From contig JBBSVV010000002.1 of assembly GCA_038046625.1 (NCBI GenBank), positions 1,821 through 29,770 on the forward strand: 27,950 nucleotides of DNA. The letters are read 5' to 3'. How positions within the stretch are numbered: the first letter of the stretch is position 1; each line of letters begins with the position of its first letter. The notes below the pieces were generated by a model. It saw nothing but the letters and a program-made list of their open reading frames with translations. It was not told the origin of the DNA and ran no database searches. This DNA comes from an archaeon. Its GTDB lineage: Archaea > Iainarchaeota > Iainarchaeia > Iainarchaeales > Iainarchaeaceae. Below, in pieces: positions 6,401-27,702 of the stretch. The position numbers were made by a program, and so were the translations under genes.

Positions 6401-9400
6401 TCAGGAGAAACGGACATCGAAGGGGTGTTCGCGTACACTTTGCTTTCTCCGGGCGACGGCTCGACAATAGGGATTTTGGCGGAGAAGCCCGGCTTCAAGT
6501 CAATTGAAAAGGAACTCGGGGTTTCGGGAAATATTTTGTCCTCGGACCCGAAAACCGTAAAGCTTTCCATGGCCGTTGGCGGCACTGCATTCAAGAACAT
6601 AGACGCATTGCTGTTGAACTATTCGCAGGTGCCGCTGCAGGTCGAGGAAGTTTCCGCCTCGAGGGACTTCCAGGGATTCGCGCAGTTCGCATTTGACGCA
6701 CCCACCACGGGAGAAATAATTGGTTCGGATTCAAACGCGGAGCTTGCGGGAACATTAAGGCTTGGGCCGCAGGGCGCGACAATAGCTGCCCCAATCAAAA
6801 TACTCGGCTCTTTGAACGTTGTTGTTTCCAGCGCGGCGTTCCAGCAGAAGTGGGTTTCATCAATCCCGTTCGAACTCACAATCGGCTTCGGCGACAATGT
6901 GGATGACACTGACTGCTTCGGCGTCTTCCCCGGCGAGTGGCAGATTTTCGGTGCGCCTTCACAGGCAAAGCAGCTCAATGTCACGATGACAAATTCGTGC
7001 AAGGTTTCCGGCGGCGCAATTCCATTGAGGAACCTCTCAATACGCGTTGTCACGGGCAACGACAACGCATTGGGAAAATTCAGGGCATCAAGCACGCTTG
7101 ACGGCTCGACAAGCGCGGAGCTCACGAACACATTCAGGAACATTGCGGCAATCGTCCCCGTGAATGCGGAGCAGACGCTTACGCTTGATTTCCAGCCCGC
7201 ACAGATAGTGAGCGGAAAAAGCGATATGCAAATTGAAGTAAGGGCGACGAATCTCACGGCGAACGGCCCTGAAGACCTCACAAAGGCAATCAAGGTTTCA
7301 ATCAACATGAACAACCTGAACGAGTGCCTCGAAGTCCTTGCAAGCCGCGATTTGACCGTGAACAGCTGCCCCAACAACATGGGATTCAACAATTACGGCG
7401 GGCAATTTTCTCAGTACCAGAATTCCAGGTACACGCAGTTCGACCCGTACTCCAACAGGAACGGTTACGGCACGGGATTGCCGCCTTACATAGGAAGCGA
7501 TTTGTCCAATGGCTCTTCGCTCGCGCCTTCGTACCAGAATTACGCGAATTATGCGAACAATTATTACCCTAACCAAAATTATTCGCAGCCGTTCTATGGC
7601 AATGATTACTCGAACAACGCGTACTCGGGCTCTTGGAACTGCGGGAGCACCTCCTTCCAAATAAGCAACAGCTGTGAAAGCGCGGTTGATGTTTCCTTTG
7701 ATGCGCAGCCCGGAATAATAGTCAGGGACAAGACCATAACCATACAGCCGAATGAGCAGAGCGACGTAACCGTTGAGCCGACAAATTTCTTCGGGCGCTA
7801 CGAACTGAACCTGAAGGCGAAGCCGAGCACGAGCAACGAAAAGGCGACGGACATCGCAAAGATTTACGTGAATGTCGTGAACGAGGCGACAAAGAATTAC
7901 AGGGACTGCATATCCCTGTCGCCTTCGCAGACGCTTAACTTCAACAATTTCTTCGGAAAGCCGGTTGAGCTCAAGGTAATGAATTCCTGTTACAACGAAG
8001 GCGTTTACCTTGACTCAAGCACTAACGCGGTTTCGTTTGCGGGCCTCGGCATCAACACGCCTACAGATGAGTCGGCTGGAGTGAAGGAACTGATTGAAAG
8101 TTGGGGGCTCATTGACGAGAAATTCGAGACACAGCCGAACGGAAAGGTAACGCAGGTTTTGACTTTCGAGGTCGCAAAGGCGCTGAGCACTTACAGGAAC
8201 AAGGCGCCTCCCGCGCAGTTCTTCGAGGCAAACAAGTATGCGGACATCGGAAATTTGAGGTATTTCCTGTCCACGACATATTACTCGGTCATGTCACGCA
8301 CCAACCTTGTCGTCAGGTTCACGACGCCTTACGGCGGTCAAAGAACGACAAGCTTCAGGCTCGTGCTGCAGGATTTGTGGCCATTGCTCGAGGCCGGGGC
8401 AAGGGTTTCGGAGCAGTTCACTACATACGGCGACCCCAAATTCACGCCGGAGCAGTGCCTGAAGAAAGAATCCTTGAATTTCATCAAAATAACCGGCGGA
8501 GAACTGCCCGTTGGAAGGATTTACTCGACTCTCGAGAACGGCGGATTGTTCAGGTACGCAACCAAGAACCCGACAACTAACAATGAGAGCGGAGGATGCG
8601 GAACAGTTGACTTCATTTCTGATTTGGAGCCTACCTCGTTCAAGGACCCGAAAACCGGGTTGGTAATGAATGTGCAGCTCGATAACGGTGGCCATGAAAT
8701 GTCCATCGGATTTGATGAAACCTCGGGACCGTGGAACGGTCAAAAAACCAATTTCAACGTGAAAATTATAGGCAACGTGAACAGGATTTCGCCGCCGGGA
8801 AAGCAGCTTGTCGGCTTCAACATACAGATTAGCGTTGCTGGAAGGCAAGGCGCAGGAACAGGGCCGGGCACAGGGCCTGGGCAGGGCGGGGAAACATTTT
8901 CGTTCGCGTGCGAGAACGGGAATTCAGGAACGGATGTTTACAGGAAATATGGTTTGCAGCACATCAGCTACGAGTGGCGCGTTTCCGGAGACTCGCCAGC
9001 ACAAAAGATTCCGGAGAATGCATGCAATGTTTACGAAGCAGCCAATCCGGCAGCACAGAGAAAACTGAATGCGGACAGCGCGCCGTTGTTCTGCGACGCG
9101 GTGCAGGCGACGGTTGAATTCTCGAGGAAGATTGACAGGGCCAAGGCAATCACCACAATCGTGAAAGGCGCAAATAGCGGAAATGGCCTCTGTGTTACAA
9201 CTGCGAATGAATTCAATTGTGCAGAACCGGCAAACAGGAATTCGCTTGAATTGTTCAGGTTTGTGCTTGACCAGAACAAAGGTTACTTCACAAGCGCTTC
9301 GGACAAGGCGCACGTGCTCGACCTCACTTTGAAGGCGATTGCAATGGCACCTTTGAATGATTCTAAGATTCTCGCGGACTCGATAAGCCAGATGAATGCA

Positions 9401-10985: not shown

Positions 10986-11447
10986 ATGGGTTTCGGCAAC
11001 ATTGTCACGGTTTTCCTCGGAATGGTTTTCTACACCCTTGGAGTGATACTCGTGAATGTTTTTATTGAGCCCCTGCAGCCCGGCGCAATAAGCCCGATTC
11101 TTGAGCTCCTCACTCTTAGCCTCGCGGTGTTCCTTTTGGGCGCGGCATTCTTCGGAAGGGCGGGTTTTTTCCTGCTTTTTTTCGCGGGAATGATTCTCGG
11201 CGGAAGGATTCTTGACAACCCGATTTATGTTTTCGCCTCATTGATGCCGCTGCTCGTCGCATTGCTCGGCGGAAGGGACATGGGAAAAATGGCACTCCTT
11301 GACCTTGACGGGAAAAGGAATTTTTTCGAGGAAAAGCAGGCTTACCTCGCTTACGCGGGAGTCATAATACTGCTCAGTGTTGCAATAGGGTTTGCCTACG
11401 AGTTCCTGCCTGTTTTTGACGTTGCAAGCATACAGGGCCTGCTTTGA
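10986..11447 (+). CDS. Small polytopic membrane protein (153 aa, about 4-5 TM helices), function unknown
   Basis: Almost entirely hydrophobic segments, 28 nt downstream of paralog 1 on the same strand, so probably co-transcribed. Confidence 0.75.
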   Translation: MGFGNIVTVFLGMVFYTLGVILVNVFIEPLQPGAISPILELLTLSLAVFLLGAAFFGRAGFFLLFFAGMILGGRILDNPIYVFASLMPLLVALLGGRDMGKMALLDLDGKRNFFEEKQAYLAYAGVIILLSVAIGFAYEFLPVFDVASIQGLL

Positions 11448-12826: not shown

Positions 12827-15800
12827 GTGAGTTCCTTGGGCCTTTTGGAAAGCGTTAAGCAGGGGTATTACAGCCTCGAGGAAAAATACTATGATTTTCT
12901 TGACAAGGTCAACGACAAAATCCCGGTTTATGAAATTGTCGACCCGATTGACAAGGTTTTCCCGAGCTTCATAATATTCAGCGCGATATTCCTGGTTATT
13001 CTCCTTCTGCTCGCAGGCACAGTAATATCGATTGTGTTTCCTTCAGTAAATGATTCGCTTGTGGTTTCCGTGAAGGACCCGGGCGGAAAAGCAATCGAGG
13101 GCGCGACCGTAACTTTCCTCAAGGGAGGAACCCCTCTTTCAAGAATTGACACCGACGCTTCCGGAATCGCGAGGCAAACAGGAGTAAAGGCGGGTGATGA
13201 GATTGAGGTGCGCGCCGAGAAACAGGATTACCTTTCAACAAGGAAAACCGCCATTATTGCGGAATTGCCGCAGGCACTCAACATCGAGCTCCAGAAGGAG
13301 AGCGATGCATTCGCCGCAAAAACAATCAGGCTCTTTGACAGGGCCGGGGGAAACGCTTCGGGAAACTTCACATTGAAATTCCGCTGCTCCGACCCTTACG
13401 CGCCCTCAATACAGGACATTACTTTGACTCCCGCGGACAACGGGGTTGCAAATGTAATGGTGCCGAATACATGCGGGCGCCTCTCGGTTGACGTGTCGGA
13501 TTCGGCAGCATTCCGGGAAGTTTATGGTTTCGCGGTTACAGGCAGCGACCAGATTATTTACCTTGACGGAATCGCGGCGCAAAGCGGAACAATAAACGTG
13601 AACGTTGCGGATACAACGGGAAAAAGCATTGACGGAATCAGTGCCGAGCTTTACAGGTACTCCGAGATTCTCGCCAATCCCAATGTGGGGCCGATTGATG
13701 TTGATTACACTTCCGGCGGGCAGGCATCATTCTCAAAGGCGCCGGGCGATTACATGGTGAAAACCTATGACGCTTCGGGAAGCTACGGCGAGGCAGCTTC
13801 GCAGAGAATTTCCCTCGGCGCGGACGAAACAAAAAGCGTTAACCTGGTTGTCCAGGAGAACGTGAGGGGCCAGATAAAAATACGCGTGGTTGACAGGAAG
13901 AGCCAGGCGAGGGTAAAGGGCGCTTCGGTCAAGCTGCTTTTTTCCTCGAGCAGCGAGGAACTCACAACGCTGAAGGCGGATGACGGCGGCGAGATTTCAT
14001 TCAACATCAGCCGCGTTGCCGAGTACAAGGCGTTCGTGAACGCTGACGGTTATCAGCTCGGGACCGTGAGCGGGCTCACGATAAGCGATTCGTTTGTTAC
14101 TGTGCAGCTGGACAAGTGCACTCCGACAACCTGCGGCAGCCTTGTTGTCAAGGTTGTTGACCAGGACAACGAACCCATAAGGAATGCGTTTGTTTCGCTT
14201 TACAATAACTCTACAAATTTTGTCGCGGGCTATAACCAGAGGAGCACGGACATCAATGGAACCGCGAAATTCTTCGGGGTTAGTTCCGGAAACTATTATG
14301 CGTTCGCATTCAAGGAAGGGTTTTCGGGAAGGAGCGACGCGGCATACTTCAGCACTGCAGTAAGCGCGGGCTCCGGGCCGAACCTCACGGTAACCATGGA
14401 AGTGGGCGAGGGAATTGTCCGAGTGAACTTAAAGGATTCGGAAGGAAACCCTGTGAGCTTCCCGCGCATAGGGATATTTGACGCGCGCACCAATGAGTTG
14501 GTTGGCTCGGACTTTGCGGGCGCGGACGGGAATTATGAAGTGAGCCTCAAGGCGAACAGGCAGGTTTATGTTGTCGCGACCAAGAAGGATGAGCAGGTTT
14601 ACGCGGATTATACGACCGTGAAAAAGCCAATCATTCCGGAAGGGGTGCAGGAATTCAATCTGAAGCTTGAGAAGCCCATACTCAAGGACAACGTTGAGCT
14701 TGAGTTCATTGGCCTCTATGATGCCGCCAACAGGGGCGTGCAGAACGTGAAGGCCGGCGAAAAATACATTGCAAAATTCAGGCTCCGCATTCCGGAGGAA
14801 AAGGATTATGATGAGGTGGGCGTGCACATCAGAACCGGCATGGATGTTTTGATGGAGAAGGACAAGCTCGACATCAAGGCGGTTAATGCGGCAAAAACCT
14901 CGCAGGCCAGGGCAACGCGCTTTGAGGGCGATGGAAGCGGCCTGAGCGAGGACGATTATGAAATCACGGATGGCGAAGCGAAGTGGGTTAACGTGAGATG
15001 GAACAACCCGCTTGCCGGAGTTTATGAGGTTGAGGCCGAGATACAGGTCAAGGATTCTGCAGCATTGGGAGAAAACCTGTTCATGTTCTACCGCGCGTGG
15101 GGGAACTCCTCGGGAGAAACGGACAGGTTCCCGGAGGATGATACAGTAAGCGAGGAATTGTATTCGAATGCAAAGCAGGAAATATTCCAGGTCGGCATAG
15201 TTACCTTGTGCGACGAGAATTTCTGCTTCAAATCAACAATTACAGATGAAGAGAATGATTTCATTGATTCGGTTACGGACACCTACAATGCGCGCGTGTT
15301 CAACCCGTACAAAATACAGTTTGTCATTACTAACAATTCCGAAACAAGGATACACAACAATGCCAACCTGCGCATCAAAAATCCGGATGAGAGCATAAAG
15401 TTCTTTGACTACACAATAACGGACGCGCAGACACGGCAGACACAAGGAGTAGTGAACGGCTTCGAGTTCCCAAGGCTAAACGTTGGAAATCTCCTGCCGA
15501 AAAACTCCATAATGCTTGAGGCGGAATTCACTCCGCAGAAGGCAATCAACGGTGTTGTCAACATACAGCTTGTTTCCGACCAGGTTATTGTTTTCGAAAA
15601 AAACCTGACACTGATTGTTTCCTCGCCGAAAGAGCTTGATGCCGAGGTAGAGCCGATGGTTTACCTATCGGGAATTCAGAATGACGTGACGGTTTCGGTG
15701 AAGGATTCTGCAAGCGGATTGGAGATTGAGAACGCCATAGTCAGGCTGAAGGACCGCGCCGGAAACGTGCTTGATTACTCTACAACGGCCAAGGACGGAA

Positions 15801-18800
15801 CCGCAGTGCTCACTTTGCCGGGGCAGGAGCCGGGGGAAAAGCTCAAAATCGAAATTGAAAAAATAGATTACAACGTGAAAATAATAGAATTGAATGTTAC
15901 GGATAGGCTGCTCGAAATAACTCCTGCACAAATCGGGGTCGCGCTGAACACAAAGAACAAGACGCAGAGCTCGGAAACCATTTCGCTGCGCAATGTTGCG
16001 CCGTACGACCTTTACATAAAGGAAATAAAGCTCGGGGGCACATTCAGGAATCTGCTTGACACCGCCTCTATAAGGAACTGGCTCGAAAGCTCTTACAGGG
16101 GAATGCCGATAAAGGCGGGGGAGAAGCAGGACATAGCCCTCAAGACTTCCCTGTCACAGGATGCGCTCGCACTTTCAGACCACACTGACCTCGATGGCAA
16201 GCTCACAATCGTTGCGGGGAATTTCGGGCAGGAATGGGTGTTCAATGTCCCGGTAAAAATCGCGATAGGCCTTGGAAGCGAGGTTGATAATCCTGCCTGC
16301 CTGATTATTACAAAAAGTGAGTGGCAGACCTCAACGAATGGGACTCCCGCAAAAACCGAGTTCCAGATACAGAACAATTGCACCGTGGGCGGAAAGCCCA
16401 TTGCATTGCAGGATTTGCAGGCAAAGGTCAACTGGAAAACCAACCAGCTCGGCGAATACACGCTTGCATTCGGCGACGACCAGGTAATTTTGAGGGGCGG
16501 CTACAACAGGCTTTTGCTCGGAACAATGCAGAAGGAACAGGCCTTGACCGCAATACTCACGTTCACTCCGTTCGGCGGAGTCAACGGGGTTGCGGAATCG
16601 GACATAGTAATCAGCGCCGTGAATCCGCTTGATGGCGAGGACCAGGTTCTCGAGAACACAATGCACACGAAAATCACTTCAATCAACCTGAAACAATGCC
16701 TGCAGTACGACAAGGAATCTTTGGACATTAACCAGAAGGAATCCGGAACCTTCACAATCACGGCAACGGAGAGTTGCGGCGAACCCGTTGAATTTGAAAT
16801 CCAGAGCGACTTGATTACTGATCCCGCTAAGCAGTTCACTTTGCAGCCGGGCCAGAGCCAGAAGGTGCAGGTGTTTGCGCAGGACAATTACCCCGGGCAA
16901 TACCCGGTTTATGTTTTGCCGAATTTCTTTTCGGACAAGCGCGAGCAGCTCGCAAAGAACCTGAAGGTAAGGATTAATGCGCCGGGCTGCTGGCAGCTCT
17001 CGAAGTACGAGTTCGATGTTTATGATTCGCCAAAGGACCAGTTTGATGGCTTTGATGTAGCTAATTTGACGAACACCTGCCCGCAGAAGGCCGTCGGAGT
17101 GAAGGTTAACCTCAAGAGCTGGGGGGACGCGGCGAAGAACGGGCTCGCTTATGGCTTGGCCGCAATGGCCTTGACTTGGCTCGGGAATTACACTGACCCG
17201 AACATTGAAAACAAGTTCCTCGGAACCGCTGCGCAGCCTGGGGGACAGAGCCAGAACCTTTCCCCTTTGGAGAAAGAGGTGCAGGACCTGCAGACAAAAG
17301 TGGATGCGGCAAAGAAGACCAAGACTCTTGAAGCACAAAGAGACACATTGCTGAGAGAGCTTGAGTCATTGCAGACTAACGCTAATTCACAAGTGGCACA
17401 GAACAATTTGGCAATAAGCAATACAAGTGATCAGGCAAAAATAACTGCACTCCAACTCAAAAATGAAAACCTGATGAAAAGAATACAAGAACTCGAATTA
17501 ATGCAAAATCAGGTGGTTCCACCAGTAGTAGAACCTACACCTGCCCCAACAAGCGCGAATCTTCCAGCAACAGGAAATGCCGTGCTTCCTCCGGTGCAGG
17601 GCCTTGTTGCGGGAATCACGGGGTCTGCAACTGGCACTAACTACCCGAGACAGCTATCAACCACAACACCTTATCAGTCTTCAGGAACCCGGGCACAGCA
17701 AACAGCCGGCCAACCTCCCTCAGGACAAAACTTCCTCCAGGGAATCGGCGGCGGAGCCGGAAGCTCATTGGGAGGAGGCCTTGCTGGCGGGATTACTTCA
17801 GGCGGCCTCGGGCTACTGAAAGGGATTCTCGGAAATAATCCGGTACAGTCCGGACTGTTCTATGGCATAGTGGGAACCGTTGCATCGTATTATTTCCAGG
17901 ACTCGGAAACGACCTTCACTACGCTGCAGAAGGACGTGGAAATAAAGAGCATTTCACTCGTGCAGGGCTCGGGAAGCCTCGAGCAACCCGATAGTGACAT
18001 TGGAGTCGAGGTTGAAGGCCTCGGCGGAAAGAAATCAGCCCCTACAGTTCCCCAGCCGCTCGTGAACAATGCGGATTTGATTTCACAGGGCATCGAAAAT
18101 ATGCGCACAATATTCACGAACATCAGCAGCCTTACAACGACGGAAGAAAAGCCGAAGTACTCGCAGCTCAAGGTCTCGGGAACGAGGCATGAGTACGCGG
18201 ACAAGACCTACACAAAGGAGGATTTCACGGACCCCGAAGGCGGGTTCCTCGGGTTCTTCACGCAGGACACAATAAACCAGGAAAAAACTCCATTGGAGGA
18301 AAAGGGCGGGCAGAGCCTCGAGCAAAGGTTTAATTTGGAGTTCAACAGCGTTCCCCCGATGGTTGAAACCGTTCAGCCGGCCTCATTATTGAACTGCCAG
18401 GCCGGCACAAAGGTCGGGTCAACCGGAGAAGACGCGCTACCCAAAGTCAAGTTCGACTGGACATGGAGCGGCATAGATGAAAAGCAGTGCAACGAGGATA
18501 ACGGGAACGGGATTTACTGCGACGCGACACAATTCACAATAGCGCTCATGAAAAAAATAAATGCAATAAGCGGGTTCGTCGCGCAGAATGCCTCGAACCT
18601 GAAGTGCCCCTCGCCTTTGGAGGACCAGCCCGCGGAAAGCGAAATCGGCAGCTTTGACATAGGGGTTTCAAAGGTTTCGGTTGCGAAAGACGGGACAAAG
18701 GCCCTTGTTTCTGCGGACATCACGAACACGAACCCGGGAATAATCAGCGCATTGGTTTCAATCAAGGCAGTGAAGGCCGGCAACGCGGGCACGGTAAATT

Positions 18801-20290
18801 GTGCTTCGGGGGCCCAGAGCATCAGCGTTGCCGCGGGCGGAAAGCAAAGTGTTTCATGCGAGTTCAATGGCCTTGCGGAGGGCTTCTATGTTGCGCAGGT
18901 TTCAATAACGCCAAGCATTTCCTGCGAGAACTGCCAAGACATTTCCGCAAGCAACTCGCTTACAAGAAACTTCTTTGCGGGAGAAACAGGGCTGCAGCAG
19001 TGCGTTCCATACAGCACTTCGCGCCTGGATGAGTTCCTGCAGGCATCCGGAATAAAGAACGATGCCATTGTAAAGATGGCGAAGTTCAATGCAACCCTCA
19101 TGGTTGACGGTTATAGTTCTGACTTCCAGCACGACTTTGATGTGGCGCAGAACGAAACTTTCTTCAGGGCACCTGATTTCTACACGGACAGGGATTCGGG
19201 GCTCGGAGTTTATTTCAGGGATGCCAAATTGTTCAATTTCGATGCGTACAGCCAGCCGGATTATGCGCTCCCGGGGCCGGGAACTTACAATGTTGTCATT
19301 GACATTAATTATGCGGACAATTCGTGGCAATTGTTCGATGCGCAGGGAAACCCGAAGGCAAAGATAAGCGTGAGGCTCGAGAAGCTGCGCGGCGCGGAAC
19401 CTGACAGCCCGTTCTATTATTTGCCGTTCGACGGCCCACTCGGGAACAACGGGAGAACCGGATACGGCCTGAACTATGCCGGGGACTCGGTAATCATTGA
19501 CAATTCCGCGACGCCCGTGAGGACGGTTGACATTGCGGGCTCCTCGCCGATACAAAACGGCACTCTTGGCGTTTCAATCAGCGGCAACTTCAGGAGCATG
19601 CAGGCCGACAACCGCGGAGTGATTGCAAAGGTCTCGCGCGCGAACGACAATCCTTCGCTTTTGTTCCAGCCTTCAAATGCAACTCCTGTGATTCTGCAGA
19701 TTGACAAGAAGTCAAAGGGCGACGCGTACGCGATTTACCAGGTCGGCGTTGACGGGGACGCGACCGATGTTGGCAACACAATGTCATTGTGGAACGGCAT
19801 AGGGGTCAGCTGCCGCGGATTTGATGACTCGGTCATGGCGCAGCAGCAGTTCGTTCCGGACACGCATGGAATAAGCGCGCAATGTGCCCTGGTGGGAGCG
19901 AATGAAAGGAGCAAGTATGCGCTTGAATTCTGCGAGAGGAACGCGCCAATGATTGACTTTGGCAGCGTGTTCTATGAAACTGTTTTCTATACTCCGCAGG
20001 CCTCGAACAGTTACGTGCAGCTGACTGACGGAGCCTCTGACAAGGCAACCCTCATCGGCGCGGCCACTTCCGGCACGAAGGTTACTTTGAACGGCAATGG
20101 AGTGACGTCCAAAATCGGCAGCCTGCAGGACGTCTTTGATTTGGTGAAGGACGAGTACGTGTGCGTTTCGGGAACGAATATTAATGCGGAGTTCTTCTGG
20201 AACCCGAAAAAGATTTTTTCAACGATACAGAACAAGGAAGACCAGGCACTCAATGCGTGCATCAGTTCGGCCTCAACGCAGATACGCTGA
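12827..20290 (+). CDS. Giant membrane-anchored surface protein, paralog 2 (2487 aa)
   Basis: The N-terminus LEEKYY...PVY..D.I...PSF.IF is shared with paralog 1, followed by a TM, Ig-like/CarboxypepD_reg-like repeats and the conserved C-terminal motifs (YCDATQFTI, PDSPFYYLPFDG, FQPSNATPV, VC...FFWNP). The true start may be TTG 12836, with GGTGA as the ribosome-binding motif. Confidence 0.9.
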   Translation: MSSLGLLESVKQGYYSLEEKYYDFLDKVNDKIPVYEIVDPIDKVFPSFIIFSAIFLVILLLLAGTVISIVFPSVNDSLVVSVKDPGGKAIEGATVTFLKGGTPLSRIDTDASGIARQTGVKAGDEIEVRAEKQDYLSTRKTAIIAELPQALNIELQKESDAFAAKTIRLFDRAGGNASGNFTLKFRCSDPYAPSIQDITLTPADNGVANVMVPNTCGRLSVDVSDSAAFREVYGFAVTGSDQIIYLDGIAAQSGTINVNVADTTGKSIDGISAELYRYSEILANPNVGPIDVDYTSGGQASFSKAPGDYMVKTYDASGSYGEAASQRISLGADETKSVNLVVQENVRGQIKIRVVDRKSQARVKGASVKLLFSSSSEELTTLKADDGGEISFNISRVAEYKAFVNADGYQLGTVSGLTISDSFVTVQLDKCTPTTCGSLVVKVVDQDNEPIRNAFVSLYNNSTNFVAGYNQRSTDINGTAKFFGVSSGNYYAFAFKEGFSGRSDAAYFSTAVSAGSGPNLTVTMEVGEGIVRVNLKDSEGNPVSFPRIGIFDARTNELVGSDFAGADGNYEVSLKANRQVYVVATKKDEQVYADYTTVKKPIIPEGVQEFNLKLEKPILKDNVELEFIGLYDAANRGVQNVKAGEKYIAKFRLRIPEEKDYDEVGVHIRTGMDVLMEKDKLDIKAVNAAKTSQARATRFEGDGSGLSEDDYEITDGEAKWVNVRWNNPLAGVYEVEAEIQVKDSAALGENLFMFYRAWGNSSGETDRFPEDDTVSEELYSNAKQEIFQVGIVTLCDENFCFKSTITDEENDFIDSVTDTYNARVFNPYKIQFVITNNSETRIHNNANLRIKNPDESIKFFDYTITDAQTRQTQGVVNGFEFPRLNVGNLLPKNSIMLEAEFTPQKAINGVVNIQLVSDQVIVFEKNLTLIVSSPKELDAEVEPMVYLSGIQNDVTVSVKDSASGLEIENAIVRLKDRAGNVLDYSTTAKDGTAVLTLPGQEPGEKLKIEIEKIDYNVKIIELNVTDRLLEITPAQIGVALNTKNKTQSSETISLRNVAPYDLYIKEIKLGGTFRNLLDTASIRNWLESSYRGMPIKAGEKQDIALKTSLSQDALALSDHTDLDGKLTIVAGNFGQEWVFNVPVKIAIGLGSEVDNPACLIITKSEWQTSTNGTPAKTEFQIQNNCTVGGKPIALQDLQAKVNWKTNQLGEYTLAFGDDQVILRGGYNRLLLGTMQKEQALTAILTFTPFGGVNGVAESDIVISAVNPLDGEDQVLENTMHTKITSINLKQCLQYDKESLDINQKESGTFTITATESCGEPVEFEIQSDLITDPAKQFTLQPGQSQKVQVFAQDNYPGQYPVYVLPNFFSDKREQLAKNLKVRINAPGCWQLSKYEFDVYDSPKDQFDGFDVANLTNTCPQKAVGVKVNLKSWGDAAKNGLAYGLAAMALTWLGNYTDPNIENKFLGTAAQPGGQSQNLSPLEKEVQDLQTKVDAAKKTKTLEAQRDTLLRELESLQTNANSQVAQNNLAISNTSDQAKITALQLKNENLMKRIQELELMQNQVVPPVVEPTPAPTSANLPATGNAVLPPVQGLVAGITGSATGTNYPRQLSTTTPYQSSGTRAQQTAGQPPSGQNFLQGIGGGAGSSLGGGLAGGITSGGLGLLKGILGNNPVQSGLFYGIVGTVASYYFQDSETTFTTLQKDVEIKSISLVQGSGSLEQPDSDIGVEVEGLGGKKSAPTVPQPLVNNADLISQGIENMRTIFTNISSLTTTEEKPKYSQLKVSGTRHEYADKTYTKEDFTDPEGGFLGFFTQDTINQEKTPLEEKGGQSLEQRFNLEFNSVPPMVETVQPASLLNCQAGTKVGSTGEDALPKVKFDWTWSGIDEKQCNEDNGNGIYCDATQFTIALMKKINAISGFVAQNASNLKCPSPLEDQPAESEIGSFDIGVSKVSVAKDGTKALVSADITNTNPGIISALVSIKAVKAGNAGTVNCASGAQSISVAAGGKQSVSCEFNGLAEGFYVAQVSITPSISCENCQDISASNSLTRNFFAGETGLQQCVPYSTSRLDEFLQASGIKNDAIVKMAKFNATLMVDGYSSDFQHDFDVAQNETFFRAPDFYTDRDSGLGVYFRDAKLFNFDAYSQPDYALPGPGTYNVVIDINYADNSWQLFDAQGNPKAKISVRLEKLRGAEPDSPFYYLPFDGPLGNNGRTGYGLNYAGDSVIIDNSATPVRTVDIAGSSPIQNGTLGVSISGNFRSMQADNRGVIAKVSRANDNPSLLFQPSNATPVILQIDKKSKGDAYAIYQVGVDGDATDVGNTMSLWNGIGVSCRGFDDSVMAQQQFVPDTHGISAQCALVGANERSKYALEFCERNAPMIDFGSVFYETVFYTPQASNSYVQLTDGASDKATLIGAATSGTKVTLNGNGVTSKIGSLQDVFDLVKDEYVCVSGTNINAEFFWNPKKIFSTIQNKEDQALNACISSASTQIR

Positions 20291-20364
20291 ATCCTTGGAA
20301 AGCGGTTTTTTGCTTAGGCAACCTTTTAATAACAAAAACGCATTTTTATTAACGGCTGGTGCCG

Positions 20365-23300
20365 ATGCCTGATTCCGAAAACCCTTTTGAAGGGCCCGCC
20401 ATTTACAGGGACAACCCCGAACCTGAACAAGAGGCCGGAGAAAAAAAAGGCGGGGGCATCGCGGATAAACTGCGCGGCGCAATTGATTCCCTGCAGGAAA
20501 AAATTCCTGTTCCATTGCCCATTGTTGCGGGCGCACTTGTCCTGCTGATTATTGTTATTGCAGGAATTTTTTTGCTTGCCTCCGGAGGGGCAACAACAAC
20601 GGTGCAAATCCTTGTGCAGAACGAGGCAAAGGTGCCTGTAAAGGCCGCAACCGTTTCCATTTCAGGCCTTGAAAAGCCGCTTGAGCTGCAGACCGACAAG
20701 GAAGGCCTTGTCTCTTTCGAGGCAAAAATCGGGGGCACTATCAATGCGAGAATTTCGAAGCAGGGTTACGGCACGGAAACGCAAACCCTGGCTGTGGAGA
20801 AGGATTCCAAGCTTATTAGTGTTGTGCTCAAAGCGCCCCAGCTTGTAACGGGGGGCGTCACAATAACGTTTGCCGGCCCCGACAAAAAGAAGCTCATTGG
20901 AAAGGAAGTGCGTGCAAAACTAAGCTGTTCCCGCGAAGGGACCTTTCCACAGGAAGAATATGTCACTGAAACAGGCGAGCTTAAGGTTACTCCCCCTGAG
21001 AACTGCGGAAGCATAAACATAACCGCTTCTGCGGGCGGCCTCAAAACAGCCACTGGCCTAGCTTTGCTTGGCAGGGCACAGGTCATCACATTTGAGGGCA
21101 TAGAAAACCCCAAAGGAAGCCTGCAAATCAATGTAAAGGATGCTTCTACAGGGTTTTTTTTGGACGGAATAAGCGTAATAATGGCTTCGGATTCGGGTGC
21201 GCCAACGGGAATAATTGGCTCCACTTCATTTGGATTAGCCTCATTTTCCATTGAGGCCGGTTCCTACACCGCACTTGTAAGTGACCCTGCTGCGCAGTAC
21301 GCATCACAAACCGTTCAGGCCGAGGTTTTGGCGAACGGCTCAATAAGGAAGGATGTCCGGCTTTCAAAGGACGTGAAACTCAGGGCAAAAGTGAGCGTCA
21401 AGGACAAGGCAAGCGGGGCAAAAATCCAGGGCGCTAAAGTAACGATTTTTGACTCGGCAAAAAAAGTGGTTCAGGAAATTTCCGTGAATGCGAATGGGGA
21501 AGCAATTTTTGCGCTGAGCGAGAACGGCTCTTACTCTTTCATTGCCTCGGCGGAAAATTATTTGCCTTCAAGTGAAACGGGGTTCTCCACTTTTGATTAC
21601 GAAAGGGGCGCCGAAGCATCCTTTGAAGTGAAGCTGCAGAAGTGCACTCCGGACACGTGCGGCATCCTTAAGGCGCGCGTGCTTGATGAGGATGGTTTGC
21701 CAGTGGAGAACGCGCGCGTAATGCTTCTGGATGAAAAGGGGTTCATACAAACGGCTTACTCTTACAAAGTCACGGATTTCAACGGCCTGATTGCCGCGTT
21801 CACGAACATTGCGGAAGGAAAGTATTCGCTGCTTGCGCAGAAGTTTCCCGCATCCGGAATATCGGAACAGTTTTCCGTGAGCGCAAAGGAAACGAATTAT
21901 GCGGAAGTGAAAATGGTTATTGGAAAGGGAACAGTCCAGGTTTCCGCAACGAACCTGAATGGCGAGGCACTTGAATTCGGGCGCGCGGAAATAATCACGG
22001 ATTACGGGAGAAGCCTCGGGACAATTGCGTTGGATGCGCAGGGCAAAGGATTTTTGGCGGACGTGAAAGCCGACAAAAAGGTTTTCGTGGTTGTGCGCAA
22101 GGAAGGCTACGCGCCTTACACCACGGCACCGAAGCAGGTTCTTCCCGACAAGAGCGTGCAGTTCAATGTTTCGCTTGAAGAATCAATTCTTGGGGACAGG
22201 CCCGCAATAGAATTTTTGGGGATTTTTTCCGAACAAGGAACAGAAGTGAAAAGCTTTTCCGGCGGAAAAAAATATTCTGCAAGATTTTTGCTAAGCGTTC
22301 CAGAGGGCCGCGAGTTTGACGAAGCCGGATTGTTTTTGAGGGCAGGAGAAAAAGAAAGCCTTGAAAAGGATTCGATTTCAATCGGCTCGGTTTCCGCGCC
22401 CTTTGCTTCGGTTGAACGCGGCCTGACCTACAATCCGCCGCTTGGAACCAACGGCGAAGAGGAACTGACTAACGGCAAAGCGAAATGGGCTTCGGTTGTG
22501 ATGCGGGAACCGGAAACTGGGAGTTATGAATTCGAGGCGGAGCTTTCGGTGAACAGCGGAATCACCAAAGGAACCTTCATGCCTCTCTTTTACAGGAGCT
22601 GGGGAATTGAAAATGCGGATTACCTGCGCGACCCTCTTGACTTGGAACTCGGAAGCGCCGCCGAAACCTCGGCAAAAAAAGGATTGTACGCGCAGGCCTA
22701 TGAAAAGGATTATTTCGAGGGGCTTTCAGAAAACTGCAGCAACGAGTTCTGCTTCGGCGAAAGGCTGCTGGATGAAACATCCGGAATTTATGTTGCGGCT
22801 CCCTACAACCTCAGGACATTCTCGCCATACAGGCTAGAATTCAGCATCACAAACAATTCGCAGCAAATTCACGACAATGCGTCGCTGAAAATAAGGAACA
22901 CAAGCGACGGCGCAAAAACGGGAAAGGAAATAAGCGTCAATTCATACTCTTTCACGAACGCGGATTCACAGAAATTTTCTTCCTCGCAGCCGAAATTCGA
23001 AACCGATGCAATCTCGCTCGGGGATTTCAGGCAGAACAAAACCGTTGCGGGAGAACTCTCGATTGAGGCGAAAAGCCAGAATTATTCCTCACTGGAATTC
23101 ACAATTGTTTCGGACAGACAAGAGGTTCTGGACAGCTTCGTTTACTTCACGCCTTTCTCCGAGGAGGACATCGACCTAAGTGTGGAGCCGGAAGAAATAA
23201 TCGCGTTTGTGCCAACGGACATCAACGTTACGGCGCTTTACGCTTCCGGCGACGACAAGGGATTCGGGATACAGGATGCGCTTGTAACGGTCACAAAAAC

Positions 23301-26300
23301 CGCGCCCGACAGGAGCCGGACAACCTTCACTGGCACAACCAATTTCCAGGGAAAGGCAACCGTAAGCGTTCCCGCTTCTTCCCCCGGAACGAGGTTCCGC
23401 ATCACACTTGAAAAACCCGGTTTGGGAGCAAAAACAATTGAAAAGGTCGTGAGCCTCGATGTTGTGAAATTCGACCCCGAAGAAATAAACATTTCAGTGA
23501 ACCGCGGCTCGGGGAACGAGGCCTCCGCAACCCTTACAATGGAGAGCGTGTCGCAAAAAGAAATCCTGGTGAAAAAGTTCAGGGTTTCAGGCGCCTTCAA
23601 AGGAATGCTTGATGAGGACCGCATGAACAATTTCCTCGCGCAATATGAAGGCAAAAAAATTTCTCCTGGCGAATTGTTCGGCACGGAAATTTTAAGCGCT
23701 TTGGGAAGCGAATCGCAATACCTCGATGCGCCCATTAAAGTCAAGGGAAAAGTGATTATTGAATTCGGGCTGCAGAATGATGATTCGGTTGCGTGGGTTG
23801 CCGAGCTTCCTTTCCAGACAACAATCAACCTTGCCGAGCTTCCGGAAAACGCGCCGTGCATAATTATCAGCGCGAAAGACTGGAGCGACTCGACAATTGC
23901 GAGCCAGGCCTCAACGGAATTCGAGATACAGAACAACTGCGTGGATTCGCAGAGCGAACCAATGGAACTTGAGAACCTGCAGGCACAGGTGCACTGGACC
24001 GGAAAAGACGGAATAATCGGGCAGGTTGAATTGGCGGTTACTGACACCGAAACAGGAAGCATTTCCTCTGAAATTCTGCAGGAAGGAATCTGGAGCAGGC
24101 TAGTTGAAAAGCTCGAGCCGCGCAGGATTTACCCCGCGAGGCTGACTTTTGTGCCGAAGCCCGGCACAATAGGGAAGAGGGCGCAGTTCAATGTGAAGAT
24201 TGACGCGGGCATACAAACCAATTCAGGTTCGCAATTGGTCGGCGCGGGCAATGACGTGAAGGCGGATATTTTCGTAATCAATTTGGACCAGTGCATGCAA
24301 TTCACTCCGGAAGCGGAACAGGGAATTGTGATTGACAGGCGCAATGAGAGCGCGGAATTCAGCATTGACACTTCGGACTGCGGGCCGATAAATCTGGATT
24401 TGCGGTTTTGCGAAGGGGGAAACGACCAGTGCAGAGGAGGAACTGAAGAAGGCGGAATTAATTTGAGGCCGTGGAGCTACAGCAACGTGAACGCGGAATC
24501 AAAAACCATTACGGTTGAGCGCGGATCGATCCCCGGATTTTATGGAATCACAATTGAAGCGCGCCCATCCGGAGGAACATGGAGAAAGGTTGCGGAGCTC
24601 GACACGATTGTGAAGCCGCCGCAGGAAGATTACTTCGAGATGGACAAGTACAAGTTCACTGTAATCGGAACGGGCTCAAAGGATTCGGCAACGCTCACAA
24701 ACTCAATGGTTCTCGAGGATGTAGAGGTTACGGCTGGTGTTTGCGATTATGCGGCGGCAGCGCAGGACAGCAGCTTTGGGGGAGCGGGCGCAGGGTTACA
24801 GTCACTTGCAATGGGAGCCATTGCCGGAACTGCCGCGGGCTGGGGGGCGGCAGGAATAGGGGTTCTGGTTTCGGGTGCGGCAAGCACTTTTTCAGCGGGA
24901 CCTTTACTTGGGCTAATGTGGTGCGTTCCATGCGTAGTAATCGGAGTGATAGTAATGATAATAGTGATGATTATGATGACGTTGGGCGGCGGAAGCCAGG
25001 ACCCATGCGCGCCGACAACAACGCAGAGCCTGCAGGCTTACGTCATTAATCTCGCGGGAACCGCGGATCAAAGCTATGAAAGGTATTTGCCGCCGGACGC
25101 ATTGGATGTCATCCTGAGTGACCGCCGCATTTCCGGAGAATGGAACCTTGACGTTACGGATGGCTCTGGAAGCGCAGGAAAGAACGGCACACAAAAAGCA
25201 GGGGTTGTTTTCACTAACAGAGGCGCCGACAGGAATGAGGCAATTTATGCGATTGCGGAGACGCGTGCAACGGAGCACATACATGGCGATGCCGCACACC
25301 AGAGCGCATCCGTTGAATGCAAGGGCTCGGATTTCGGGATGTTCTGGATAAATCCTGCGAGCTGCAGCAACACTTATGACAAAACTTACTCGCAGAAATT
25401 CCATTTGAAGTTCAAGGTTGCCGAGGAAAAGGCTCCGCTGACAAAAGTGGCGTTCGACACTTACGCGTGCCAGAGCGGAACAGCCATCGGAAGGACCGGC
25501 CCGGGCGCATTGCCGCGCATCAAAATGAACTGGAGCTGGAAGGAATCCCAGAACGGCATTTCATACAACCAGTGCGATGCCACGAACCCTGGCGCGGTTT
25601 ACTGTGACGCGACCCAGTTCACGATTGAACTGAACAAGAAGCTTTACAGGCTCCATGATTTCCTTGCCACAAACAACTTTGACCTGGGCTGCCCCGCGGC
25701 CACTGACATAGCCTCACAGGCCGAAAGCGAGTTCAATTCAATGAGCACAAACACTGATGTCGGCTCCGGCCTCATCGGGGTTTCAAAGGTCGAGGCAATC
25801 AAGGGCACAAACAGCGTGACGATAAAGGCAACCGTGAAAAACAACACGGCATTGATAGAGAATGCTGTTGTTGACGTGAACATGGGGAACCTGCAGGACG
25901 CGTTCTCGCAGGACTTCGAGAACTGCAAAATAAATGTGAACGGCATTGAAGGAAACGGCGGAACGAAACAGGGGGAATGTGTTCTTCCGGTAAATGAGGA
26001 CGGCGCGCACGGCATAATAGCCAAGGTTGCACAGGCATCAAATCCAGGCATTGTTTCCCGGGCCCCTGCAACCGCAGGATTCTATTCAGGAATTTTCAGC
26101 ACAGGGCATCCGTTGGACAGCCAGGATTCAGCGGCGGAAAACGGCGGCGGGGGAGCGCCTTCAAGCTGCGAATTCAAATCCACCGAAACTTATTACGAGG
26201 TGCCGCAGATAATGAGGTTCATTGACTCGAACCCGAACATTAAATGGACGGCCTCGGTTCCGGACCGCGCAGAACTCCAGAAGCTCCTCATGTTTGACGC

Positions 26301-27561
26301 GTACCTCATGAAGGACAATTATTCAAAGGAATTCTTTGCGGACTTCGCGGATTACTACACGAAACAGGCGTTCGAGGACACGGATTCGTACTTCAATAGG
26401 CTCAACACGGATTCAAACGGAACGCCTTACGGGTTCGCGAGGCTCATGGATAAGGGTTTGTTCGTGCTCACGAGAAAATACGTGCAGAGCCCGGAACTTC
26501 CGGGCGCGGGTCTGTATCACGTGGAGTTCGGGATTTACTTTGGAAAGGATGACTGGCGGTTCTTTGATTCAACAGGAAAGCCGAAAGCGGGGGTTTCTGT
26601 GGTTGTTTACAAGGCAAGTGATGCGTTCCCGAACAGCCCGTTCTACTCCATGCCGATTGACGGCCTTGTGGGATTGAGGGGAAACAACTTCACTAGGCAG
26701 GGCTACGGGACGGCATTCAGGAACAACTCCTCAAGAATCATTGCAATAAGCAACGAATTGCCGCAGGCAAAAACTTATGAGGATGCGGGCAGCAATGCGG
26801 TTGCGGGCGCAAGCGTGGAAACCAAAAAAGACTTTTACAGCCTGAATACTTCCCCTTCAACGCGCGGAATGGTCCTGGAGGTTTCAAAGGGAAAAACGGG
26901 AAAGGCAGCAACAATATTGTTCCAGCCCTCACAGGCAACGCCCGTGCTCATGAAGGCCACGCAGAACTCGCTGAGCGAGGAAAAATTCGGCGCATTCTAT
27001 TCAATGCTCGAGAACAACAATGCGGTTGGCGCGGGCAATACGCTCTCTTACTGGGACGGCGCGGGGAGCTGCTTTGACTTCACCGGAGTTCCGGTTACCG
27101 AAGCGTTCTACCAGAAGCCAGACCGCGCCGCAACCACTGAAGACATGCTCCTTGACTGGAAAAACATTTACGGCATTGACTGGCAGAGGGCAACAAAAAA
27201 AGGCGACGTTTATTTGCGCACGATTTTCTACACGAACCCAAATGATGATGTTGTCATCAAGGCGGTCAAGGGCCCCTCGGCACTGGACTTTTTCACCCCG
27301 GATTCGAAGGGCGGGCTCGTTGCATTGAACGGGGTTTCCGGAATGCCCTACAATAATTTTGCCGGCGGTTCCGTGGGAACTATAGACAGCATTGATGACG
27401 TGTTCGCGCTTGTGGAGGCGGGGCAGGTTTGCGTAACCAATTCAGGGGATTCCACAAAATTCTGGTGGAACCCGCAGGCCATTTACACGCAAACAGGCCT
27501 ACAGAGGAACATCTCCGATGAAACCAACAGGCTGGTCGCGGGCTCGACCTGCATCGGGTGA
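20365..27561 (+). CDS. Giant membrane-anchored surface protein, paralog 3 (about 2398 aa)
   Basis: N-terminal TM (IVAGALVLLIIVIAGIFLL) and the same domain order. KCTPDTCG matches KCTPTTCG in paralog 2; YCDATQFTI, PNSPFYSMPIDG, FQPSQATPV and FWWNP are present. ATG 20365 is preceded by GGTG, so the GTG at 20359 is probably part of the ribosome-binding motif. Confidence 0.9.
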   Translation: MPDSENPFEGPAIYRDNPEPEQEAGEKKGGGIADKLRGAIDSLQEKIPVPLPIVAGALVLLIIVIAGIFLLASGGATTTVQILVQNEAKVPVKAATVSISGLEKPLELQTDKEGLVSFEAKIGGTINARISKQGYGTETQTLAVEKDSKLISVVLKAPQLVTGGVTITFAGPDKKKLIGKEVRAKLSCSREGTFPQEEYVTETGELKVTPPENCGSINITASAGGLKTATGLALLGRAQVITFEGIENPKGSLQINVKDASTGFFLDGISVIMASDSGAPTGIIGSTSFGLASFSIEAGSYTALVSDPAAQYASQTVQAEVLANGSIRKDVRLSKDVKLRAKVSVKDKASGAKIQGAKVTIFDSAKKVVQEISVNANGEAIFALSENGSYSFIASAENYLPSSETGFSTFDYERGAEASFEVKLQKCTPDTCGILKARVLDEDGLPVENARVMLLDEKGFIQTAYSYKVTDFNGLIAAFTNIAEGKYSLLAQKFPASGISEQFSVSAKETNYAEVKMVIGKGTVQVSATNLNGEALEFGRAEIITDYGRSLGTIALDAQGKGFLADVKADKKVFVVVRKEGYAPYTTAPKQVLPDKSVQFNVSLEESILGDRPAIEFLGIFSEQGTEVKSFSGGKKYSARFLLSVPEGREFDEAGLFLRAGEKESLEKDSISIGSVSAPFASVERGLTYNPPLGTNGEEELTNGKAKWASVVMREPETGSYEFEAELSVNSGITKGTFMPLFYRSWGIENADYLRDPLDLELGSAAETSAKKGLYAQAYEKDYFEGLSENCSNEFCFGERLLDETSGIYVAAPYNLRTFSPYRLEFSITNNSQQIHDNASLKIRNTSDGAKTGKEISVNSYSFTNADSQKFSSSQPKFETDAISLGDFRQNKTVAGELSIEAKSQNYSSLEFTIVSDRQEVLDSFVYFTPFSEEDIDLSVEPEEIIAFVPTDINVTALYASGDDKGFGIQDALVTVTKTAPDRSRTTFTGTTNFQGKATVSVPASSPGTRFRITLEKPGLGAKTIEKVVSLDVVKFDPEEINISVNRGSGNEASATLTMESVSQKEILVKKFRVSGAFKGMLDEDRMNNFLAQYEGKKISPGELFGTEILSALGSESQYLDAPIKVKGKVIIEFGLQNDDSVAWVAELPFQTTINLAELPENAPCIIISAKDWSDSTIASQASTEFEIQNNCVDSQSEPMELENLQAQVHWTGKDGIIGQVELAVTDTETGSISSEILQEGIWSRLVEKLEPRRIYPARLTFVPKPGTIGKRAQFNVKIDAGIQTNSGSQLVGAGNDVKADIFVINLDQCMQFTPEAEQGIVIDRRNESAEFSIDTSDCGPINLDLRFCEGGNDQCRGGTEEGGINLRPWSYSNVNAESKTITVERGSIPGFYGITIEARPSGGTWRKVAELDTIVKPPQEDYFEMDKYKFTVIGTGSKDSATLTNSMVLEDVEVTAGVCDYAAAAQDSSFGGAGAGLQSLAMGAIAGTAAGWGAAGIGVLVSGAASTFSAGPLLGLMWCVPCVVIGVIVMIIVMIMMTLGGGSQDPCAPTTTQSLQAYVINLAGTADQSYERYLPPDALDVILSDRRISGEWNLDVTDGSGSAGKNGTQKAGVVFTNRGADRNEAIYAIAETRATEHIHGDAAHQSASVECKGSDFGMFWINPASCSNTYDKTYSQKFHLKFKVAEEKAPLTKVAFDTYACQSGTAIGRTGPGALPRIKMNWSWKESQNGISYNQCDATNPGAVYCDATQFTIELNKKLYRLHDFLATNNFDLGCPAATDIASQAESEFNSMSTNTDVGSGLIGVSKVEAIKGTNSVTIKATVKNNTALIENAVVDVNMGNLQDAFSQDFENCKINVNGIEGNGGTKQGECVLPVNEDGAHGIIAKVAQASNPGIVSRAPATAGFYSGIFSTGHPLDSQDSAAENGGGGAPSSCEFKSTETYYEVPQIMRFIDSNPNIKWTASVPDRAELQKLLMFDAYLMKDNYSKEFFADFADYYTKQAFEDTDSYFNRLNTDSNGTPYGFARLMDKGLFVLTRKYVQSPELPGAGLYHVEFGIYFGKDDWRFFDSTGKPKAGVSVVVYKASDAFPNSPFYSMPIDGLVGLRGNNFTRQGYGTAFRNNSSRIIAISNELPQAKTYEDAGSNAVAGASVETKKDFYSLNTSPSTRGMVLEVSKGKTGKAATILFQPSQATPVLMKATQNSLSEEKFGAFYSMLENNNAVGAGNTLSYWDGAGSCFDFTGVPVTEAFYQKPDRAATTEDMLLDWKNIYGIDWQRATKKGDVYLRTIFYTNPNDDVVIKAVKGPSALDFFTPDSKGGLVALNGVSGMPYNNFAGGSVGTIDSIDDVFALVEAGQVCVTNSGDSTKFWWNPQAIYTQTGLQRNISDETNRLVAGSTCIG

Positions 27562-27680: not shown

Positions 27681-27702
27681 CTGAAAAGCACCGCAAAAAC
27701 TT

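Follow-up and report, generated by a model that had tools for sequence, protein, structure and literature searches.

The window analysed here, a stretch of 27,950 nt from an archaeon of the Iainarchaeota (GenBank assembly GCA_038046625.1, contig JBBSVV010000002.1, positions 1,821 to 29,770 of the forward strand), carries a tandem array of giant genes. The third of four paralogs, p3 (20359..27561; this and the other coordinates refer to the + strand of the window unless stated otherwise), is a giant surface protein of 2400 amino acids (aa; 2398 aa in the database copy, P0004), and it contains a cysteine-bracketed, uncharged insert that looks like a membrane-embedded helical hairpin. We put at roughly 0.5 the probability that this element is a disulfide-clamped transmembrane hairpin that serves as a second anchor in the membrane of the producing cell. 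In this protein family the hairpin would represent the minimal form of a variable insert module; the same site, between Gly-zipper segments, appears to be taken up in p2 by a coiled coil of hypervariable sequence and in p4-type relatives by a bundle of four helices.

Sequence properties of the paralog 3 insert

The insert spans positions 24742-25008, exactly from the codon of Cys1462 (C1; 24742..24744) to the codon of Cys1550 (C2; 25006..25008) in the numbering of the 2400-aa open reading frame (ORF). C1, at the base of the insert, is nearly invariant in an alignment of 29 sequences, and C2, which co-occurs with C1, lies in the (E/D/Q)DPC motif closing the insert. The sequence between the two cysteines consists of 20% Gly and 18% Ala, and 20 of its 83 positions are of the small-xxx-small type. 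The first segment, h1 (aa 1472-1510; 24772..24888), is uncharged and Gly/Ala-rich and holds four GxxxG motifs, all of them in the first half of the insert; its best 19-aa window reaches 1.47 on the Kyte–Doolittle (KD) scale. The second, h2 (aa 1523-1542; 24925..24984), is a strongly hydrophobic, Ile/Val/Met-rich segment with twenty consecutive I/V/M/L/G residues and a 19-aa KD maximum of 3.07, compared to 3.24 for the N-terminal hydrophobic anchor of p3, which follows a K/R-rich sequence (aa 46-87 in a sliding window; 20494..20619). The longest run free of D, E, K and R in the whole protein, 77 residues at aa 1471-1547, is found here; none of 5000 shuffled p3 sequences contained a run of this length (mean longest run 27.6, maximum 66). 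A preliminary description, based on the DNA letters only, had proposed an uncharged, Cys-bracketed stretch with a strongly hydrophobic helix; the translation agrees with it letter for letter, and the KD profile and hydrophobicity fit the membrane-helix character that it suggested.

The internal CxxC mentioned in the same description was also found, as WCVPC at aa 1521-1525 (CVPC, aa 1522-1525, preceded by Trp; 24922..24933), at the junction of h1 and h2. Similar aromatic-CxxC motifs (WCVPC, WCPPC, FCPPC and the like) are located exactly at this junction in 9 of 33 short inserts of the p3 type. The motif could be redox-active, bind a metal or form a third disulfide, depending on the side that it faces. 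The p3 insert shows no accelerated evolution, being 92% identical to that of the orthologue in Candidatus Iainarchaeum andersonii, a value equal to that of the rest of p3.

Insertion site in a beta-rich domain

An AlphaFold2 (AF2) model of p3 aa 1275-1800, built from a 39-sequence alignment (mean predicted local distance difference test score, pLDDT, of 75), places the insert within one beta-rich domain, which it interrupts between two consecutive strands; the pLDDT of the flanks is 85-98. The preceding strand ends 2 aa ahead of C1, and the next one begins 3 aa past C2. The upstream strands occupy aa 1424-1461 (YKFTV...VEVTAGV; 24628..24741; model strands E152-154, E158-160, E167-174 and E178-186, pLDDT 92-96), while the downstream part of the domain covers aa 1551-1686 (25009..25416; strands E279-287 to E398-412, pLDDT mostly 85-98). 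Since the flanks form a single confidently modelled domain, both ends of the insert must be on the same side of any membrane, and the number of membrane crossings must be even. In the model h2 is a helix (model residues 249-268, pLDDT about 65), and h1 has a pLDDT below 50 with no stable structure predicted, so that the model does not resolve the hairpin geometry. Foldseek searches against PDB and BFVD and the VIA-wide comparison assigned no fold to the insert-bearing domain, as their rows barely cover model residues 150-412 and mainly fall on the preceding PapD/MSP-like domain.

To map the site in other proteins, hidden Markov models (HMMs) of the 84 aa upstream and the 94 aa downstream of the p3 insert were used as anchors. 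In p2 the upstream HMM matches aa 1345-1430 (63.7 bits) and the downstream HMM matches aa 1697-1793 (33.1 bits); therefore, the region between these homologous flanks, aa 1431-1696 (266 aa; 17117..17914), is the p2 insert, which lacks the bracketing cysteines. The inserts of p2 and p3 are thus at a homologous position, as had been proposed. For p1, the preliminary description was right in that there is no hydrophobic insert, but the equivalence of the site could be established only for its upstream half. In a comparison with the p3-type profile (hhalign, 99% probability), the preceding immunoglobulin-like (Ig-like) domain aligns together with the initial strands of the insert-bearing domain, and the alignment stops just before the position of C1; the sequence that follows is charged and non-hydrophobic, and p1 thus lacks a hydrophobic insert at this site. 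According to the KD profile, the only transmembrane-like segments of p1 are its N-terminal anchor and a marginal peak of 1.53 at aa 1104-1123. In the preceding Ig-like domain p1 has a low-complexity insert of its own, about 100 aa long and rich in Tyr, Asn, Ser, Gly and Pro (aa ~1290-1400, window ~7340-7673), with a Tyr pattern conserved in the p1-type alignment.

Distribution of the family and classes of inserts

Among 237 candidate stretches taken from species-representative genomes, 220 code for relatives of the giant proteins. A survey of 68 loci in such genomes yielded 140 ORFs of at least 1000 aa on the match strand, and in most of these loci the giant ORFs form arrays of 2-4. A search with p3 aa 1130-2400 revealed 43 homologs at E ≤ 0.001, the best of them, apart from p3 itself, with 58% identity over 100% of the region; where an organism is named for a homolog, it is always an archaeon and in most cases Candidatus Diapherotrites (Iainarchaeota). 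For the giant family, 543 cluster representatives were obtained at E ≤ 0.001, and the family is confined to Iainarchaeota-type genomes, together with a few records titled Micrarchaeota. The window array shares with this family the homology over the full length, including the conserved C-terminal ~1100 aa, and the tandem arrangement of 2-4 paralogs on one strand. The only names that members bear in databases are "hypothetical" and "carboxypeptidase-like regulatory domain-containing", and full-text literature searches returned no description of this Iainarchaeota family or of its insert site.

Among 143 ORFs (these 140 and the three window proteins), the upstream HMM matched 115, the downstream HMM 82 and both of them 79, and the sequence between the anchors ranged from 2 to 670 aa. 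Five classes of inserts were distinguished: short p3-type inserts of about 60-160 aa with a Gly/Ala-rich h1 and a hydrophobic h2; p4-type inserts of 300-420 aa; p2-type inserts without cysteines; a few short amphipathic inserts of 32-61 aa; and two inserts of 630-670 aa with 54-60 cysteines (L060:7970-10015 and L062:1302-3221), for which no Pfam or NCBIfam match was found. Nearly all inserts start with C-(D/A/E)-W-x-x-A and acidic residues and end with (E/D)DPC, and all classes retain Gly-zipper segments at both ends. In the 67 ORFs with complete anchors, C1 and C2 were either both present (62) or both absent (5), and a single cysteine was never observed; this count leaves aside 12 ORFs with incomplete anchors, in which C2 was visible where inspected by eye. 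From this covariation, we infer that a disulfide between C1 and C2 most likely clamps the base of the hairpin. In 36 short-type relatives, the KD maximum of h2 is 0.9-3.5 and is at least 1.9 in 31 of them.

The proteins' inserts have few recognisable domains: a Pfam search with 37 long and 41 short inserts and 29 p2-position regions, and an NCBIfam search with 13, gave only one borderline PKD domain above the cut-offs, and a PDB sequence profile search with the whole family found only an Ig-like piece (E 6.6e-4). For the p3 insert itself, no Pfam family was matched even at E ≤ 0.1. Such a lack of Pfam matches, as well as the low AF2 confidence in h1, is what one would expect of chance low-complexity sequence or of an annotation artefact without function. 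Such an origin is highly improbable and in practice refuted by conservation, given the 92% identity to the closest relative, the equivalent architecture in the 36 short-type relatives, the position of the feature in frame within a 7.2-kb ORF with 43 homologs, and the result of the shuffling.

Hypervariable cassette in paralog 2

The preliminary description assumed that the p2 insert shares the hydrophobic property of the p3 insert, which proved not to be the case: its KD maximum is 1.12, and it contains 35 charged residues. A conserved Gly/Ala-rich segment resembling h1 opens the insert, coiled-coil and Pro-rich sequence makes up its middle, and a conserved Gly-rich segment closes it. A heptad pattern is present in 28-aa windows beginning at aa 1492-1494 and 1536-1537, matches to coiled-coil families were sub-threshold only, and a Protein Atlas search with the p2 insert gave no usable match.

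The middle of this insert holds a coiled-coil/low-complexity cassette (aa 1479-1600; 17261..17626) that is hypervariable. Relative to the orthologous gene at the locus of Ca. I. andersonii (L001), its DNA identity is 0.50, versus 0.826 at 967 fourfold sites outside the insert; therefore, the cassette has diverged beyond the neutral level. The h1 and h2 parts on either side of it have nucleotide identities of 0.87 and 0.94, the amino acid identity drops to 0.18 in the 50-aa bin from aa 1501, and outside the insert p2 is 95.8% identical to its counterpart. This pattern in the sequences suggests recombination or diversifying selection acting on an exposed coiled coil, and is easier to reconcile with an exposed surface than with a location in the cytoplasm. 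In other genomes, genes at the p2 position likewise encode a cysteine-less h1-like segment followed by variable low-complexity or Cys-rich sequence; in one of them, the borderline PKD domain mentioned above lies 83-156 aa past h1 (E 2.5e-6, 27.8 bits with a cut-off of 27).

Modelled four-helix bundle in p4-type relatives

The p4-type region of Ca. I. andersonii was modelled with AF2 from a 20-sequence alignment (mean pLDDT 79). The model shows four long helices (residues 65-139, 144-187, 195-240 and 250-318; pLDDT 88-96), in which h1 makes up the beginning of the first helix, at low confidence, and h2 is a separate low-confidence helix at 327-348. Together, h1 and h2 form a low-confidence two-helix neck of ~20-25 residues between the beta domain and the bundle. 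In the fold comparison, the bundle proved generic: its best match was an artificial four-helix maquette (Z 18.5), followed by the pore form of AhlB (Z 14.8) and the TorS sensor (Z 12.7), Z values below about 13 being common for helical bundles; Foldseek gave nothing at E ≤ 0.001.

In 26 inserts of the long class, h1 and h2 are acidic at their ends beside C1 and C2 (K/R versus D/E, 17 vs. 65 and 22 vs. 54, respectively), while the ends facing the bundle are basic (40 vs. 25 and 20 vs. 12), and h1 is too polar to resemble a transmembrane helix. Two features were considered as markers of the side of the membrane on which p4-type middles reside, and both were rejected. An even number of cysteines, clustered at the distal tip, is present in 16 of 20 middles, but this parity fits disulfides and a metal site equally well. 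The density of N-glycosylation sequons was not discriminating either, with observed/expected ratios of 0.82 for p4-type bundles, 1.5 for the N-terminal ectodomain, 0.93 for the C-terminal part and 1.0 for non-membrane ORFs of the genome.

An alternative to the membrane hairpin is that h1 and h2 are buried in protein, either in the core of a homo- or hetero-oligomer, for example, one made of the packed Gly-zipper necks of p2, p3 and p4, or as a lipid-binding pocket at the cell surface. The low-confidence neck of the p4-type model has the expected appearance of an element that requires a partner, small-xxx-small patterns are helix-packing motifs, and the paralogs always occur in tandem; moreover, the Gly-zipper ends common to all insert classes are strictly kept in p2 around its hypervariable middle. 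For p3, however, twenty consecutive I/V/M/L/G residues with a KD of 3.07 are typical of lipid-exposed helices, and export through Sec should put such a helix into the membrane before an oligomer forms. No oligomer interface was observed in any of our analyses, and a protein-buried core appears rather unlikely, if conceivable.

Proposed membrane topology of paralog 3

The simplest interpretation of the p3 insert is a hairpin in the membrane of the producer, since h2 is on par with the signal anchor of the same protein in hydrophobicity, and a helix this hydrophobic is expected to exit the Sec translocon sideways into the producer's membrane during export. The summed insertion free energy of h2 is estimated to lie between about -6 and +3 kcal/mol for 34 of the 36 short-type inserts, and at +8 and +11 for the two weakest; by the same estimate, h1 is marginal, with +0.6 to +6.6 in 34 of 36. 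A marginal helix such as h1 is of the kind that inserts alongside a strong partner. According to this scheme, the Gly/Ala-zipper h1 and the very hydrophobic h2, inserted in a turn between consecutive strands of the extracellular beta-rich domain, would most likely be the second and third transmembrane helices of p3 in the cytoplasmic membrane. The N-terminus of p3 would be inside, followed by the anchor, about 1400 aa of Ig-like repeats outside, the hairpin in an out-in-out arrangement, and about 850 aa outside, so that this second anchor would tie the conserved C-terminal third of the protein to the membrane surface. The covariation of C1 and C2 fits a disulfide and thus an extracellular base. 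The base is net acidic in the 36 short-type inserts, with K/R versus D/E counts of 32 vs. 69 before h1 and 22 vs. 105 after h2. We also count in favour of this topology the small polytopic membrane proteins conserved beside or within the array (see below). Besides, according to two papers the lifestyle inferred for Ca. I. andersonii is possibly free-living (PMC6642349, PMC6349945), which lessens the need for a device directed at a host.

Several observations weigh against this topology. The tip of the hairpin is nearly devoid of positive charge (K/R versus D/E, 8 vs. 11 and 2 vs. 11 over the 36 inserts), while a loop facing the cytoplasm is expected to show a positive-inside bias. The paralogs seem to display exposed modules at the same site, such as the p2 cassette and the PKD domain, which leaves no need for this side of the domain to be turned towards the membrane. 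The low pLDDT of h1 counts against the proposed topology as well.

The same tip would permit the bilayer to be crossed from outside, and one could propose that the hairpin stays out of the producer's membrane and inserts into that of another cell, with several paralogs making up a device for attachment, pore formation or fusion. With its uncharged tip and a Gly/Ala-rich h1 held by a two-cysteine clamp, the hairpin may be likened to internal fusion loops, and the p2 cassette outpaces neutral sites, as expected for a surface engaged in an arms race. Many DPANN archaea are host-attached, and in two reports their giant proteins are proposed as devices for host interaction (PMC10266531, PMC6642349). 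On the other hand, h2 has the hydrophobicity of a signal anchor, which is too high for an exported inserting element: in the known examples considered here, the hydrophobicity is only marginal, or export follows a dedicated secretion route. The p3 insert does not evolve at an accelerated rate, and the closest named relative is, as noted above, possibly free-living. Searches of PDB and of the viral library, with rows that barely cover the insert-bearing domain, returned only generic Ig-like/PapD-like and helical-bundle folds, and the sole match to a fusogen, HAP2 (Z 7.8), fell on the preceding Ig-like domain; the two-component pore or fusion device suggested in the preliminary description gained nothing from them. 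Insertion into a partner membrane is accordingly improbable, and we consider equally doubtful its extension, in which the four tandem giants make up one contact machine where the p3 hairpin would enter the membrane of another cell and the fast-evolving p2 coiled coil and the p4 bundle, at the same structural site, would serve for recognition or triggering. Given the hydrophobicity of h2, a constitutive anchor in the cell's own membrane seems likelier, an outcome that the preliminary description had named as contradicting its proposal.

Genomic context

The source organism is a close relative of Candidatus Iainarchaeum andersonii (DPANN, Iainarchaeota); its assembled genome comprises 986 kb in 57 contigs and is 84.6% complete. 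The locus of this nearest named relative has the identical order p1-p2-p3-p4 and about 92% protein identity. The window contains three very long ORFs on the + strand: p1 (3473..10957, 2494 aa, without the hydrophobic insert), p2 (12827..20290, 2487 aa, 92.4% identical to the second giant gene of L001) and p3. The fourth gene is truncated by the contig end after its N-terminal 88 aa (27685..27948); according to tblastn, the peptide encoded by these last 264 bases of the window aligns at 86% identity with aa 16-103 encoded by the fourth giant gene in L001, and the C-terminal 397 aa of p4 are located at the end of contig C7 (43658-44848; 95% identity). One may speculate that the missing middle of p4 would contain its insert and that strain heterogeneity there broke the assembly.

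All three proteins, which share 23-25% pairwise identity, start with a K/R-rich segment followed by a hydrophobic anchor with 19-aa KD peaks of 2.6-3.2. Pfam detected only CarboxypepD_reg, Ig-like and macroglobulin-type repeats in them, with CarboxypepD_reg and Ig-like repeats within the first ~1000 aa, and no match in the C-terminal ~1300 aa.

A small polytopic membrane protein of 153 aa (10986..11447; 19-aa KD maximum 2.39) is encoded between p1 and p2, and homologs of this protein of ~160 aa were found at the equivalent place in 10 of 69 loci. A second one, of ~125 aa (L001:26694-27080 and equivalents), directly follows the last giant gene in 48 of 69 loci. Neither belongs to a Pfam family; both are possible membrane partners of the giants. 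The other conserved neighbours of the array are housekeeping genes (DNA polymerase B and M24 peptidase).

The gap between p1 and p2 is 1870 nt in the window versus ~570 nt in L001, and it holds an ORF of 287 aa on the - strand (11519-12382) with a BRO-N domain (E 1.8e-11); owing to this difference in length, the gene resembles a viral or mobile insertion relative to Ca. I. andersonii. Another ORF of 368 aa on the - strand (1513-2619) matches the GGDEF (diguanylate cyclase) domain (E 2.4e-8), which would be unexpected in an archaeal genome.

Implications and comparison with known systems

Giant surface proteins are prime candidates for the means by which ultrasmall DPANN archaea handle their surroundings and partners. 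In this lineage, they form a conserved four-gene array with a hot spot in a beta-rich domain, the modules of which, framed by two Gly-zipper segments and a probable disulfide, are exchanged in evolution; the spot appears to be occupied in three contrasting ways, by a hairpin in the membrane, by a coiled coil of hypervariable sequence and by a bundle of four helices. Even as nothing more than a second anchor, the p3 hairpin would set the topology of a protein of 2400 aa, whose conserved C-terminal third would then be predicted to act at the surface of the membrane. If the hairpin inserts into other membranes instead, it would constitute a cell-cell device of a new kind, and the array, should it act as a contact machine, would be an archaeal non-viral device for membrane insertion or fusion and a candidate for the way in which DPANN archaea open contacts with partners. 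The p2 cassette, in turn, marks a surface under strong selection or recombination.

Three known systems resemble parts of the array. The p4-type insert, and it alone, recalls the tripartite alpha-pore-forming toxins of the ClyA family (AhlB/C, Hbl, Nhe, Mak and Smh) in combining an elongated bundle with hydrophobic helices and in being encoded next to related genes. Eight chains of this type were among the 50 rows of the p4-type fold comparison, and the match to the AhlB pore form (194 aligned residues with a root-mean-square deviation of 2.8) is within the range of generic bundles. However, the hydrophobic helices of the p4-type insert are at the base rather than at the tip, no sequence match to the toxins was found, and a bundle is absent from p3. 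Class I viral fusion proteins and fusexins (HAP2/Fsx1) resemble p3 in being extracellular and in carrying an internal hydrophobic loop between two cysteines; in p2, the first hydrophobic segment is followed by a coiled coil. Unlike fusion peptides, h2 of p3 is far more hydrophobic, and there is no sign of a trimeric core or trigger; a fusion-protein fold was sought with Foldseek against PDB and BFVD and in the VIA-wide comparison, which gave generic Ig-like, PapD and ASH matches and barely covered the insert-bearing domain. The SPEARE giants of nanohaloarchaea, as described in two reports, likewise belong to DPANN archaea; they are thousands of residues long and largely extracellular, have Ig-like adhesion repeats and anchoring transmembrane segments, and are present as several copies in each genome (PMC6642349, PMC10266531). 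No sequence relation between them and the window family was seen, and the conserved cytoplasmic ATPase/helicase-like domain that, in the same reports, follows the SPEARE anchor (PMC10266531, PMC6642349) was not detected in p1, p2 or p3 by Pfam.

The closest functional parallel to the p3 hairpin is provided by the glycine-zipper lipoproteins of Gram-negative outer membranes, SlyB and YfgH (Pfam PF05433 and PF13488), in which two membrane helices rich in small residues and GxxxG motifs form a hairpin; both proteins are presented as transmembrane glycine-zipper lipoproteins in one report (10.64898/2025.12.22.696046). No insert scored above the gathering cut-off of the glycine-zipper families (PF05433 Rick_17kDa_Anti, PF13488 and PF13441), the best relative reaching 21.7 bits with a cut-off of 25; sub-threshold glycine-zipper matches were located on h1 or h2 in 8 of the 37 long and 3 of the 41 short inserts. 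In contrast to SlyB and YfgH, the hairpin described here is an internal insert of a 2400-aa archaeal protein with a clamp of two cysteines, and h2 of p3 is an Ile/Val/Met helix instead of a glycine zipper. By analogy, the p3 hairpin would nevertheless work most like the two-helix membrane hairpins of the SlyB/YfgH type.

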